Below are positions 3,521-60,838 of a stretch of 64,000 bases of DNA, piece by piece. The translations under genes were made by a program, and so were the position numbers. A model generated the notes under the pieces. That model saw only the letters and a list, made by a program, of their open reading frames with translations, did not search any database and had not been told where the DNA came from. The stretch is taken from assembly GCA_964016885.1 (NCBI GenBank), contig OZ024766.1, positions 7,254,001 to 7,318,000 on the forward strand, given 5' to 3'. This stretch comes from Eledone cirrhosa (taxonomy: Eukaryota). Position 1 is the first letter of the stretch. The number at the start of each line of letters is the position of its first letter.

Positions 3521-3612
3521 ACGTGTTACAGGTGTTTCACAGAGGATTAGCTCAAGGCGACTCATAGGAGTTATGGACCTGACTCCAGTATTCATCTGCT
3601 CCTCAGACTGGT
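3521..3612 (-). ncRNA. Degenerate type I hammerhead-like motif (family G, long stem II)
   Basis: Minus strand CUGAGGA-GCAGA..UCUGU-GAAAC-ACCU-GUA; stem I only ~2 bp; homologous decayed copy at 57144-57232. Confidence 0.45.
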
Positions 3613-3657
3613 GATGTGACAAAAGATATATATATATACATATATATATATATATTA

Positions 3658-3800
3658 ATTAAAATAACAGATTAAAGTTAAGGGTGAAAGCAGCGATTCT
3701 TTGCTTAAACTTTAATCTGTTATTTTAATAAATATTCGATATATATTTATCCTTATCAAGCCCTCTTCAGATTTTACTCTTCACATTTATTATTATTAGT
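3658..3800. mobile_element. Short fold-back element fragment, possibly Penelope-like
   Basis: Inverted repeat ATTAAAATAACAGATTAAAGTT / AACTTTAATCTGTTATTTTAAT; related pieces at 4119-4170, 12718-12750, 12866-12895, 35130-35251. Confidence 0.5.
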
Positions 3801-4696
3801 ATATATATATGTTTATTTTCCTATCTTCGGTTTGCTTTTATCCTTCTATGTTGTTCACTTGTCCCCCTCGCTTTACGCGATTTACTGGTCCCAATAACTT
3901 TTTTTAGCTTATTGCTCGCACCAACCTGAGGTACCTGATTTTTAATGTGATGAAATACCAATGATGGTTGGCAAATCACTGACGAAGGACTATTTTTATC
4001 ATATGTAACCCATGTGCAAACCACGCAGTATTCTTCTTTCTTCTCATGTTTTATATATATATATATATATATATATATATATATATATATATATATATAT
4101 ATATATATATATATATATAATCCTTATCAAGCCCTCTTCGGATTTTAGTCTTCACATTTATTATTATTACTATATATATATATATATATATATACATATA
4201 TATATATATATAGAATTCACAAGAATCAAAGCTGTGTTCAAAGCATTTATTCACTTACAATTGTTTCATCCAAACTTCCACTGTTTAGGGTTTAAAATAT
4301 ATATAACTATAAAAAGTTTTAGTATATACATAACCATAAATAGTATCCTTAATATTATATATATATATATATATATATATATATATAAGGAAGGAGTTTC
4401 CTATATACATATATATATATATATATTAGAATGTGACTATATTAGAAACGGTTGAGGCCTGGCAGTTAATGTAGAGTGATACTCTGTTCTCCCAAGTATA
4501 GAGTTCTCTGTTGAAGAATGGTCTAACTTGTTTAATACTGGTTTATATATATATATATATATATATATATATATATATATTTATATAACTACCAGTACAA
4601 CATCACTACAATATGATACTGATGGGTGTGAAAATGTTGGTGGTCTGGAAAAGTAAGTATTAAAGTTTGTTGTTGTTATTGCTACTGTTGTTGTTG

Positions 4697-5930
4697 ATCA
4701 TCATCATCATCATCATCATCGTTTAATGTCCATGTTCCATGCTTGCATGGGTTTGGACGGGAGTTTTCCCACTTGAGGCAAGAGTGGTTGTCATTGCTCG
4801 CATAGGACTGTCTGGCGGGTTTTCTACAGTTGGATGCCCTTCCTAACACCAACCACATTTACAGTGTGGGGCTGGGAGGTTTTTACCGTGTTGCCTACAC
4901 GGCCACATTACAGCGTGGACTGTCTGGCGGGTTTTCTACAGCTGGATGCCCTTCCTAACACCAACCACATTTACAGTGTGGGGCTGGGAGGTTTTTACCG
5001 TGTTGCCTACACGGCCACATTACAGCGTGGACTGTCTGGCGGGTTTTCTACAGTTGGATGCCCTTCCTAACACCAACCACATTTACAGTGTGGGGCTGGG
5101 AGGTTTTTACCGTGTTGCCTACACGGCCACATTACAGCGTGGACCGTCTGGCAGGTTTTCTACAGCTGGATGCCCTTCCTAACACCAACCACATTTACAG
5201 TGTGGGGCTGGGAGGTTTTTACCGTGTTGCCTACACGGCCACATTACAGCGTGGACCGTCTGGCAGGTTTTCTACAGCTGGATGCCCTTCCTAACACCAA
5301 CCACATTTACAGTGTGGGGCTGGGAGGTTTTTACCGTGTTGCCTACACGGCCACATTACAGCGTGGACCATCTGGCAGGTTTTCTACAGCTGGATGCCCT
5401 TCCTAACACCAACCACATTTACAGTGTGGGGCTGGGAGGTTTTTACCGTGTTGCCTACACGGCCACATTACAGCGTGGACCGTCTGGCAGGTTTTCTACA
5501 GCTGGATGCCCTTCCTAACACCAACCACATTTACAGTGTGGGGCTGGGAGGTTTTTACCGTGTTGCCTACACGGCCACATTACAGCGTGGACTGTCTGGC
5601 GGGTTTTCTACAGCTGGATGCCCTTCCTAACACCAACCACATTTACAGTGTGGGACTGGGAGGTTTTTACCGTGTTGCCTACACGGCCACATTACAGCGT
5701 GGACTGTCTGGCGGGTTTTCTACAGCTGGATGCCCTTCCTAACACCAACCACATTTACAGTGTGGGGCTGGGAGGTTTTTACCGTGTTGCCTTCACGGCC
5801 ACATTACAGCGTGGACTGTCTGGCGGGTTTTCTACAGTTGGATGCCCTTCCTAACACCAACCACATTTACAGTGTGGGGCTGGGAGGTTTTTACCGTGTT
5901 GCCTACACGGCCACATTACAGCGTGGACTG
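4697..5930 (-). mobile_element. RTE-type LINE 3' UTR/tail with an internal 112-bp unit tandemly amplified ~10 times
   Basis: Identical ORF starts every 112 bp (4834, 4946 ... 5842); (GAT)n tail on the minus strand; same sequence follows the RTE ORF end at 10857. Confidence 0.85.
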
Positions 5931-6013
5931 TATATATATATATATATATATATACTCTTTTTATTCAAATATATACAAATATAGATACAAAACGCACCAG
6001 AGTACTCAATACT

Positions 6014-6182
6014 CAAAGTGGTCGTGGAGGTGCCACGGTAAAAAAGCACCCAGCACTCACTGTAAATGAGGTTGGTGTTAGGAAGGGCATCCAGCTGTAG
6101 AAATCAAGCCAGAATCAGTTCCCGTCCCACCCTTGCAAGCAGGGAAAAGCGGACATAAAATGATGATGATGATGATGATGAT
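6014..6182 (+). mobile_element. 3' half of the CORE-like SINE
   Basis: Matches the tail of full copies (34610-35075); ends in (GAT)n. Confidence 0.85.
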
Positions 6183-6310
6183 ATATATGAAGTATTTCCA
6201 TAGGAAAGGTAAAGGAAAGGAGAGTGCTCTATGTAGGCTACAGAGTTTATTAGTTATGTAATATACAACATAAGATAATTATTTCATTTACCAAAGGTTT
6301 CACGAAGGAA

Positions 6311-6385
6311 ATTTCATTTTGACGATTGAAGGCAGACGTCTGCGCCAGGCTCGTCTGTCGTCGTGAAACCTTTGGTAAATGGAAT
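6311..6385 (+). ncRNA. Type I hammerhead-like motif (family C) with C3U core change, inside fold-back 6271-6395
   Basis: Stem I AUUUCAUU/AAUGGAAU, core UUGACGA, stem II GGCAGACG/CGUCUGUC, GAAA-CC-UUU-GG-UA; inverted arms 6271-6305 and 6361-6395. Confidence 0.6.
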
Positions 6386-58386: not shown

Positions 58387-58524
58387 GAAAATCCTGGTGT
58401 ATTTATTTGAAAAACAAAAATATAATCTATATATAAACTACTATTAAGCTCTGTAAATTACATAGAGCACTCTTTTTTCCTGGACTGTTCCAACGGAATT
58501 ACTTCAATCATACACATATATATA

Positions 58525-58870
58525 TCATCATCATCATCATCATTTCATTTTACGTCCGCTTTTCCCTGCTTGCAAGGGTGGGACGGGAACTGATTCTGGC
58601 TTGATTTCTACAGCTGGATGCCCTTCCTAACACCAACCTCATTTACAGTGAGTGCTGGGTGCTTTTTTGCCGTGGCAACTCCACGACCACTTTACAGTGG
58701 AATGATAGGGACCCCAGTCCCTATCATCTCATTTCTACAGCTGAGTAAACTGGAGCAATGTGAAATAAAGTGTCTTGCTCAAGGAAACAACACATCACCC
58801 GGTCTGAGAGTTGAACTCACAACCTTTCGATTGCAAGGCCAATGCTCTAACCACTAAGCCATATGCCTCC
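58525..58870 (-). mobile_element. CORE-like SINE, full length
   Basis: Reverse complement of the family consensus. Confidence 0.88.
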
Positions 58871-58975
58871 ATATATATATATATATATATATATATATAT
58901 ATATATATATATATATATATATATATATATATATATATATATATATATATATATATATATATATATATATATATA

Positions 58976-59982
58976 CTTGCCTATGTACAAAGCGAAACCT
59001 ACAGTCAGTAGGCACCTCTTAACCAAATATACACCTCAACCCACTACTCCAACTCCCCCATCTACACCACCCCTTTTGATGTAAAGTTATGTTGGTGCCA
59101 CAACATCCAGTCCTAAATAAATGAGGTCGTGTAGGTGTCACGACAATAAAACACACAGTCCACGCTGTAATGTGGCCGTGTAGGTAACACGGTAAAGACG
59201 TCCCAGTCCCACACTGTAATGTGGCCTTGTAGGTAACACGGTAAAAACCTCCCAGTCCACACTGTAATGTGGCCGTGTAGGTAACACGGTAAAAACACAC
59301 AGTCCACGCTGTAATGTGGCCGTGTAGGTAACACGGTAAAAACACACAGTCCACACTGTAATGTGGCCGTGTAGGTAACACGGTAAAAACACACAGTCCA
59401 CGCTGTAATGTGGCCGTGTAGGTAACACGGTAAAAACACACAGTCCACGCTGTAATGTGGCCGTGTAGGTAACACGGTAAAGACGTCCCAGTCCCACACT
59501 GTAATGTGGCCTTGTAGGTAACACGGTAAAAACCTCCCAGTCCACACTGTAATGTGGCCGTGTAGGTAACACGGTAAAAACACACAGTCCACGCTGTAAT
59601 GTGGCCGTGTAGGTAACACGGTAAAAACACACAGTCCACGCTGTAATGTGGCCGTGTAGGCAACACAGTAAAAACCTCCCAGTCCACACTGTAATGTGGC
59701 CTTGTAGGTAACACGGTAAAAACCTCCCAGTCCACACTGTAATGTGGCCGTGTAGGCAACACAGTAAAAACCTCCCAGTCCACACTGTAATGTGGCCTTG
59801 TAGGTAACACGGTAAAAACCTCCCAGTCCACACTGTAAACGTGGTTGGTGTTAGGAAGGGCATCCAGCCGTAGAAAACCCGCCAGACAGTGCTGAGCAAG
59901 ACAACCAATCTTGCCTCAAGTGGGAAAACTCCCGTCCAAACCCATGCAAGCGTGGAAGATGGACGTTAAATGATGATGATGA
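58976..59982 (+). mobile_element. RTE 3' UTR with a ~50-bp hairpin unit amplified more than 10 times
   Basis: Begins at the ORF-end sequence CTTGCCTA.GTACAAAG seen at 10857; repeated GGCCGTGTAGGTAACACGGTAAAAAC; (GAT)n tail. Confidence 0.85.
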
Positions 59983-60452
59983 TATACTCACATATACATA
60001 CATATGAGATTCCATCATATATATATATATATATATATATATACATATATATACACACACATATACATACATAACTGCACATACATACATACAAGATTCC
60101 ATATATATATATATATATACACACACACATATATATATACACATAACTGCACATACATACATACGAGATTCCATATATATATATATACACACACATATAT
60201 ACACATACCTGCACATACATACATACGAGAGTCCATATATATATATATATATACACACACACACATATATACACATACCTGCACACGAGAGCCCATATAT
60301 ATATATATATATATACACACACATATATACACATACCTGCACATACATACATACGAGAGTCCATATATATATATATATATATATAATATGATATGTTGAT
60401 TTAAAACTGCACTATCAACAAGTGTTTTTTAGCCTTCATATCATGTTCTCCT

Positions 60453-60521
60453 GTTTTATCTGATGAAAACACAAATATTATTGCATGATGATGTTTGTTT
60501 TTGAAATGCGCATAATAAAAT
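60453..60521 (+). ncRNA. Type I hammerhead ribozyme, family A, in single-arm element 60386-60647; predicted cleavage after 60514
   Basis: Same fold as 12559-12627, intact core. Confidence 0.85.
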
Positions 60522-60785
60522 ATATGGAACTCCTTTAACCATCTTTTGATCTTATATTATGCATACTCCAGTCCCACAAACTGTAGAGTGCTTCTTATCC
60601 GATATCTGCATTGCTTTATTGTACTACAATAAAACTCACCTCCTACATATATATATATATATGTATATATATATATATATATATATATATATATATATAC
60701 GTAGGTCCCGGGTTGAGTCGGGGATAACCACAGTAAGTAAGGTACTCAATACATGGCAGAGTAATAATTTTTTATTTTATAGAAG

Positions 60786-60838
60786 GAGCTTCTACAGGAC
60801 TAGTACTGTTTCATTCAGATGAAATCTTCAGGAAGCTC
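60786..60838 (-). ncRNA. Type I hammerhead ribozyme, family D (GUA triplet)
   Basis: Minus GAGCUUC-CUGAAGA-u-UUC-AUCU-GAA-u-GAAA-CAG-uACUAGUc-CUG-UA-GAAGCUC: 7-bp stem I, 4-bp stem III, palindromic loop. Confidence 0.8.

Follow-up and report, generated by a model that had tools for sequence, protein, structure and literature searches.

Hammerhead motifs in Eledone cirrhosa as the probable 3' ends of truncated, often fold-back Penelope-like elements, with a likely footprint of ribozyme cleavage in one family

Penelope-like elements (PLEs) of the endonuclease-bearing (EN+) Hydra clade, including Hydra-1_Obim from Octopus bimaculoides, have been described as having just one open reading frame (ORF) of ~700-780 aa in which reverse transcriptase (RT) is followed by a C-terminal GIY-YIG domain (PMC8557442). 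RWK-type and DKT motifs, a CxCx5C linker, a hammerhead ribozyme near the 3' end, insertion into (TA)n, partial tandems (pseudo-long terminal repeats) and 5'-truncated inverted copies also belong to this description, and the supplement of the same paper already holds an O. bimaculoides Hydra family with a hammerhead and a (TA)n preference. All these traits are shared by the elements studied here, whose hammerhead motifs are scattered over a stretch of 64,000 nt (the window; contig OZ024766.1, positions 7,254,001 to 7,318,000) in the 3.0-Gb genome of Eledone cirrhosa. We consider it probable that these motifs are the hammerhead-bearing 3' ends left by autonomous PLEs, mostly of the Hydra clade, whose copies lie in (TA)n, truncated at the 5' end and often folded back, and that in one family, H, a minority of copies was reverse-transcribed from RNA already cut by the hammerhead. 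As elements they are ordinary new members of known PLE clades. Unlike the described Hydra-clade PLEs, at least six families here have thousands to tens of thousands of marker matches each, and their tails are 67-87 nt instead of 30-40 bp (PMC8557442). By eye, no hammerhead here matches the Hydra-1_Obim motif in File S2 of that paper, and family H has a U3-A8 core.

Poseidon PAc from Anolis carolinensis is the closest system with biochemical data. In vitro, two RT start sites explain its tail, and both-strand cleavage followed by extension was described (PMC11167929); a tail at one end of PLE copies was already known qualitatively (PMC8557442). The elements here share with PAc the two internal start sites 3' of the hammerhead that define the tail, the AT-rich targets and uncut RNA as the main template, but the start sites of A, H, B' and C lie before the ATG instead of inside the ORF, and genomic copies of H pile up at the cleavage site where PAc gave no reads (PMC11167929). 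With the minimal PLE hammerheads (PMC4209133) they share the type I topology, a short palindromic stem III (A, B', E), an extra base after A9 (E, F) and the U3-A8 variant, while C, D, H and R have a longer stem III that may fold as a monomer and several families are without the G10.1-C11.1 pair. Opposite-strand hammerhead pairs 100-700 bp apart were already noted in Schistosoma (PMC4209133).

Parent elements, 3' ends and fold-backs

Exact marker patterns were counted genome-wide and gave 22,619 matches for family A, 3,292 for B, 12,077 for B', 3,913 for C, 13,171 for D, 4,613 for E, 10,899 for F and 53,264 for H, together 123,848, with 0 for each reversed-pattern control; these are counts of arms, not of insertions. 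The D count is raised by copies of one fragment (L104-L107, L109, L114, L120; L numbers denote genomic loci), which recurs with identical flanks and so rides inside a larger repeat. For family G, the first marker pattern matched only the window copy in the whole genome, and a family-typical pattern gave 262 exact matches beside 2254 DNA-search candidates.

Parents were sought between 20 widely spaced marker pairs chosen from the match lists. At L220, two A motifs on the same strand, 3.9 kb from each other, flank a frame of 775 aa, and at L237 a frame of 786 aa is flanked by two H motifs. RT or endonuclease frames, many of them broken, were also found inside pairs of B, B', C and F; no such frame was present in three of the 20 pairs (L224 of B, L230 of D, L235 of B') or in L226 of C. 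The parents of D (L113) and E (L137) were each found at one locus that is contiguous from the endonuclease end to the hammerhead. In general, the same-strand repeats of families A-F and H are 3-4 kb apart with ORFs in between. RWK-type and DKT motifs, with K, R or I as third residue, were read in the A, B', C and H frames; the N-termini of the B and D proteins were not recovered. The CxCx5C linker is present in A, B, B', C and H, of which A, B and H also have the CxxC and CxH motifs around the conserved E and N and no CCHH; the D protein has the CxC start of the linker and a stop codon further on. The E and F proteins have a CX4CxxC linker, which agrees with the CX2-5CxxC pattern that precedes a CCHH-type GIY-YIG in the Neptune and Nematis clades and would place them in one of these two. 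Pfam had no match for the five Hydra-type proteins and only sub-threshold RVT_1 and GIY-YIG matches for the F protein. For the H protein, 2054 relatives, ~40% identical and ~700 aa in length, were found among 7996 candidates scored, and its structural model (predicted local distance difference test score 93) had telomerase RT as best structural match (E 2.1e-8).

Judged from these sequences, families A, B, B', C and H can be assigned to the 3' ends of Hydra-clade PLEs whose RT and GIY-YIG ORFs stand elsewhere in the genome, D is probably another, and E and F appear to derive from other parents, Neptune or Nematis. That the motifs are PLE 3' ends at all is close to certain. The first-pass annotation of the window had proposed PLE origin, (TA)n targeting and an inverted arrangement, all of which are supported, and the extension to an RT plus GIY-YIG ORF that it suggested succeeded for 8 of 9 families (D and E at one locus each). 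Its description of the pieces as non-autonomous derivatives is not the most apt one: they are variably 5'-truncated copies of autonomous elements, with arms running into the RT/EN frames.

In every Hydra-type family, and likewise in F, copies end at one of two fixed 3' positions downstream of the predicted cut. The tail between them measures 83 nt in A, 83 nt in H, ~67 nt in C and 87 nt in B', and its sequence is the start of the 5' leader of the next tandem unit; the start sites in A, H, B' and C fall in the leader ahead of the ATG. Insertion into (TA)n was observed. We then scored 133 inverted pairs with at most 6 kb between them, drawn from the matches on C1 that head the list, from incidental copies and from the window. 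Three of them continued into a tandem unit and were left out, and among the remaining 130 exactly one arm was tailed in 123, no arm in 6 and both arms in 1, where independence would give 50% (p 7e-29). The one-tail rule was equally valid for short and long pairs. Family E had no inverted pairs or tail in 25 loci.

The fold-back centres, counted by eye in short pairs, were clustered. In family A, 28 of 40 arms end at a 6-nt palindrome, at a distance of 119-126 nt upstream of the cut, in family H 43 of 52 end 35-45 nt upstream of the cut within stem II, which explains the H "halves" of the first-pass annotation, and arms of D mostly end at stem I. At base level the centres vary from copy to copy, the arms range from ~20 nt to more than 4 kb, and both arms of a fold-back carry the same subfamily variants. 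As a separate observation, the H tail was found fused, with nothing in between, to the 3' part of a different family (B, E or F) at window positions 9761-9915 and 35200-35405 and at L586 and L441; these chimeras are likely template switches between different PLE RNAs.

5' ends of family H at the predicted scissile bond

An unselected sample was made of copies found solely through sequence 3' of the cut. In this sample 26 of 30 H copies and 29 of 30 A copies crossed the cut intact, and 4 H copies and 1 A copy started at or next to it. One H subfamily was then searched genome-wide for tailed copies whose match starts at a set position behind three mismatched bases. There were 29 such copies at -7, 6 at -3, 15 at -1, 115 at position 0, which is the predicted bond, 6 at +1 and 5 at +4; the weak side of these counts is that they cover one subfamily of one family at six positions, and that the flank filters differ between positions. 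The strict share starting at the cut is ~1%, perhaps 2% after the flank filter, on a base of ~15,000 tailed copies (37,335 x 12/30).

Sixty of the 115 position-0 copies were read individually. Sixteen are hairpins in which both arms end at the bond and are separated by one A or T, and 20 are fold-backs in which the tailed arm ends there, in some cases with a G overlap of 1 nt; 12 adjoin microsatellite and 11 adjoin other sequence. In the remaining copy (L448) the hammerhead is intact, and 7 A-rich bases are inserted exactly at the predicted bond. Among the 11, L584 has an intact H hammerhead with 19 extra A-rich bases at the same point, and L578 is explained by stem I microhomology. A few of the copies read are maybe not independent, because L575 and L580 do not differ over the flank windows, which are mostly TA, and in two pairs the distance is no more than 4 kb. 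At the neighbouring positions, 8 of 12 copies read (of 15) at -1 borrow the C from the opposite arm, the other arm ends at 0 in 3 of 6 copies at +1, and the -7 class is mostly stem III self-homology. A BLAST-based 5'-end histogram gave no peak at the cut, its loci having been chosen by patterns that span the cut.

The H pile-up is likely the genomic footprint of in vivo cleavage, and there is a good probability, in our judgement, that RNA cleavage caused the peak. The footprint is clear for family H only, and in H stem III is able to form in the monomer. Two side observations belong to this family. Repeated 5'-terminal fragments, or an H ORF piece, are joined at the predicted cut at L429, L590, L560, L561 and L430, and these junctions look like template jumping at the RNA 5' end. 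An H subfamily with a mismatched C3-A8 core is nevertheless abundant (L187, L248, L486, L489, L094), and in a small sample its near-site junctions all had microhomology.

A peak of 115 copies at the predicted bond would be direct evidence of cutting by a PLE hammerhead, with cut RNA as a minor template (~1-2% by the strict count, 4/30 in the unselected H sample). Among the titles and abstract openings listed by the searches, none describes a pile-up of genomic 5' ends at the hammerhead site of a PLE, where subscription papers, Repbase and unread supplements may bear on the matter, and such a footprint was absent from the papers examined. The test uses genome sequence only and is applicable to any PLE-rich genome. 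It seems rather likely that the genome contains a base-resolution fossil record of germline hammerhead cleavage, with run-off, untemplated additions and template jumps at the bond, that the share of copies starting at the cut serves as a natural in vivo assay of ribozyme activity over more than 100,000 copies of differing cores, and that the one-tail rule reflects two-ended priming from two fixed sites. The interest thus lies in the H footprint and the quantified one-tail rule, the elements themselves being of a known kind.

Mechanism and rival explanations

The parent ORFs, the two fixed 3' ends, the one-tail rule, the clustered centres and the H peak are established by the analysis, and the following course could produce them. 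The RT-GIY-YIG protein would cleave both strands within (TA)n, and of the two target ends one would prime at the near start site and one at the far site, which lies 67-87 nt deeper in the 5' leader of the next unit. Both complementary DNAs (cDNAs) would usually traverse the uncut hammerhead, halt at a family-specific structure and be joined by microhomology into a fold-back with one tail. If the template had already been cut, both cDNAs would run off at its new 5' end and be joined with one untemplated base, or a cDNA at that end might jump to another RNA. The 5' ends of R2 retrotransposons are set by a ribozyme like that of hepatitis delta virus, and L1 twin priming is inversion through both target ends. 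Ribozyme-defined 5' junctions and two-ended priming would be alike in these systems, while in the present elements the two arms are copies of one and the same 3' segment and cut templates make up a small minority. Cleavage as dimers is plausible for A, B' and E by analogy from their palindromic loops (PMC4209133, PMC6765202), and it should not be assumed for every family, as the predicted stem III of C, D, H and R has 3-7 bp.

That the motifs arose by chance in AT-rich repeats, or are the terminal inverted repeats (TIRs) of DNA transposons, has practically no probability left. The bare core heptamer is indeed more frequent than in shuffles (28 vs ~16), and fold-backs in TA resemble miniature inverted-repeat transposable elements (MITEs), but the descriptor controls given below, thousands of copies per family with 0 for the reversed patterns, the RT-GIY-YIG parents and the asymmetric tails speak against both; chance motifs and TIRs are refuted by the descriptor controls, the parent ORFs and the one-tail rule. 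Quite improbable, too, is the reading of the short pieces as non-autonomous families in their own right, either retrozymes or MITE-like, that would multiply in the form of short units. Many A fold-backs are nearly equal in size and centre, family R is a true ORF-less tandem unit, G came without a parent and E copies are mostly short, all of which would suit such families; against them, the centres differ by copy, the arms extend from ~20 nt to over 4 kb into RT/EN frames, and short and long pairs follow the one-tail rule alike. Contiguous ORFs refute self-standing short units for A, B, B', C, F and H, and the label retrozyme was rejected for A-H, which are not tandem short units.

A closer rival accepts the PLE origin and lets one cDNA prime its own second strand at a palindrome, in place of two target ends that prime separately. 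The hotspot of A is itself palindromic over 6 nt, several centres coincide exactly with this palindrome, and subfamily variants are common to both arms. Under such a snap-back, the precise end of the second arm at the near start site, seen in almost all pairs, would call for an explanation of its own, and a hairpin whose single central base is unpaired is better accounted for by two run-off cDNAs, which makes snap-back rather doubtful and two-ended priming the fairly probable course, even if both alike fit these sequences. The H pile-up in turn might, without any cleavage of RNA, reflect RT that stalls at the base of stem III or on the G run, or hairpin centres that were deleted later. In these families RT stops are indeed clustered at structures, the four Gs give microhomology, F and D have no peak, and ribozyme mutants of the anole PLE insert normally in vitro, with no reads ended at the site (PMC11167929). 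However, RT that stalls at stem III would be expected to include the unpaired C17 (-1), where 15 matches stand and 8 of 12 read took their C from the other arm; slippage on the G run should populate +1 to +4, where 6 and 5 matches were found; deletion of hairpins does not account for simple copies beside microsatellite that share position 0; and two copies have A-rich inserts exactly at the bond (L448, L584). We regard stalling or deletion as unlikely and keep cleavage as the explanation of the H peak.

Apart from the narrow base of the 5'-end counts and the equal fit of twin priming and snap-back, several results weigh against the reading of the motifs as PLE ends with cleavage in H. Cleavage is not required for insertion, because most copies cross the site intact. 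The four-G run after the site gives 1-4 nt of microhomology at some junctions (L578, the TAA class, L373, L383). The same cleavage-site test gave 5 matches and no peak for D, 120 matches and no single-base peak for F, many of them at -3 or -2 through microhomology, and 276 matches for A that are ambiguous in AT-rich sequence (3 of 5 fetched A copies are symmetric hairpins at the predicted site). The window fold-back of F, outside the 130 pairs, has no tail on either arm, and no parent ORF was found upstream of G in 25 loci. The stems of family C count on both sides, with modest covariation among 17 copies: two-sided changes in 4 of 20 pairs were a level reached by 97 of 500 shuffles, and the scores other than this count (18 cells with two-sided change against 0 of 500 shuffles; 95% of cells paired against 28-49% when slid) are inflated by kinship of the copies.

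Motifs and other features of the window

The window has a GC content of 36% and is mostly microsatellite and tandem repeat. We scanned it with a strict type I descriptor that demands the core boxes, at least 3 of the first 4 pairs of stem II, at least 4 bp of stem I and an NUH site. Nine matches were found, with core boxes, three stems and NUH in type I order, while dinucleotide shuffles (3 sets x 100) had means of 0.01, 0.03 and 0.06 with a maximum of 1, and the reversed window, the complemented window and 10 decoy cores had 0. The scan for type I or minimal hammerheads that the first-pass annotation had proposed thus gave 9 matches against at most 0.06 expected, and each of the 22 whole, half or decayed motifs it had listed was present (22/22). 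Eight of the 22 satisfy the strict descriptor (four of A, B' 58010, C 58328, D 60786, E 35369), and the ninth match, 63865 of family R, had been missed by it. The features are as follows.

12224..12670, unstranded: family A fold-back insertion, 83-nt tail on the left arm; the right arm ends at the short end in (TA)n
12354..12424, minus: family A hammerhead, complete, with 8-bp stem I, 2-bp stem III, palindromic loop and AUA site
12558..12628, plus: family A hammerhead, complete (strict descriptor)
39753..40171, unstranded: family A fold-back insertion, right arm alone tailed
39798..39868, minus: family A hammerhead, complete (strict descriptor)
39971..40043 (approximate ends), plus: family A hammerhead with a core substitution
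60393..60650, plus: single truncated family A copy with tail; complete hammerhead at 60452-60522
58010..58075, plus: family B' hammerhead, complete (strict descriptor)
57395..57800, unstranded: further B' 3' halves in small fold-backs, absent from the earlier list; markers at 57434 (plus) and 57674 (minus)
55570..55634, plus: family B hammerhead, G at the cleavage position and weakened stem II, predicted inactive
54277..54341, minus: family B hammerhead, G at the cleavage position and weakened stem II
9761..9915, minus: chimera of a family B 5' half and a family H tail
58328..58386, minus: family C hammerhead, complete, with 3-bp stem III and GUA site (strict descriptor)
6251..6396 (approximate ends), unstranded: family C fold-back of two 3' halves, centre within stem II
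60786..60838, minus: family D hammerhead, complete (strict descriptor); tail reaches ~60700
34273..34326, minus: family D hammerhead, 5' strand of stem I replaced at a fold-back junction
35369..35405, minus: family E minimal hammerhead with GUU site (strict descriptor), 3' end joined to a family H tail
12045..12081, plus: family E relative, second core box broken
40995..41485, unstranded: family F fold-back, both arms without tail; motifs at 41289-41331 (plus) and 41147-41190 (minus)
3521..3613, minus: family G hammerhead with branched stem II insert and stem I mismatch; tail to ~3390
57144..57235 (approximate ends), minus: decayed G-like motif
24695..24897, unstranded: two family H 3' halves in a fold-back with a single tail, centre within stem II
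35515..35650 (approximate ends), unstranded: family H fold-back of 3' halves
3314..3370 (approximate ends), minus: family H single 3' half
63728..64000, plus: family R truncated monomer, ~190 nt of it beyond the window edge; complete hammerhead at 63859-63938 with 7-bp stem III

The motifs that failed the strict descriptor have a core substitution (39971), a G at the cleavage position (55571, 54288), broken cores (12045, 57144), broken stem I (34274, 41147) or a stem I mismatch (3521). Motif 41289 of family F has a non-palindromic 2-nt loop III, and the F type satisfies a relaxed descriptor only; 9821, 6311 and the three H sites are half motifs. In family H, N7 is a free core base, stem III has 6 bp and full copies have the U3-A8 core. 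The palindromic loop III ascribed earlier to many of the motifs held for A, B', E, D and H and failed for C and F. An Rfam scan of the window had no hammerhead family among its best 150 matches (390 further matches score lower), and the 150 were all sub-threshold microRNA models that had matched (TA)n hairpins. Minimum free energy folding of 18 window motifs recovered the three-stem hammerhead for C and R only, to which no weight is given because minimal motifs are not expected to fold thus as monomers. As annotated earlier, no RT or GIY-YIG ORF is present: tblastn with 6 parent-protein queries gave 0 matches in the window. Exact marker matches number 18 in the window against 2.65 at the genome mean, a density that is inflated because the markers were derived from the same window. 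At least 10 further hammerhead families, several with a U3-A8 core, were met by chance in 1.27 Mb of overlapping loci (L001-L424).

Elsewhere in the genome family R, of which the window copy, L051 and L032-L050 are members, forms head-to-tail units of 624-625 bp, with 2374 search candidates of which the top copies are 96-97% identical. The L036 unit contains no ATG ORF of at least 60 aa, and no RT plus GIY-YIG ORF was linked to the family. Like the animal non-LTR retrozymes, it is built of head-to-tail units that lack an ORF and carry a single type I hammerhead; the unit length and the 7-bp stem III set it apart from them (PMC7229834; bioRxiv 10.64898/2026.07.22.740005). We would class R from its sequence as a retrozyme-like family with one hammerhead per unit, present in the window as a truncated monomer. 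The statement that the elements are not arranged head-to-tail is correct for A-F and H and does not apply to R.

Tandem arrays occupy 4805-5931, 6761-9371, 16643-17095, 20692-21488, 23496-24694, 26654-27623, 42108-44041 and 53947-54248 of the window, with periods of 112, 108, 49, 136, 303, 65, 72 and 50, respectively. Those with periods of 112, 49 and 50 look derived from dispersed repeats that resemble short interspersed elements. Window positions 10809-11039 and the loci L001, L010 and L017 hold fragments that we take to resemble the 3' ends of RTE-like long interspersed elements. The stretch 6420-6760 is non-repetitive and may hold a short exon.

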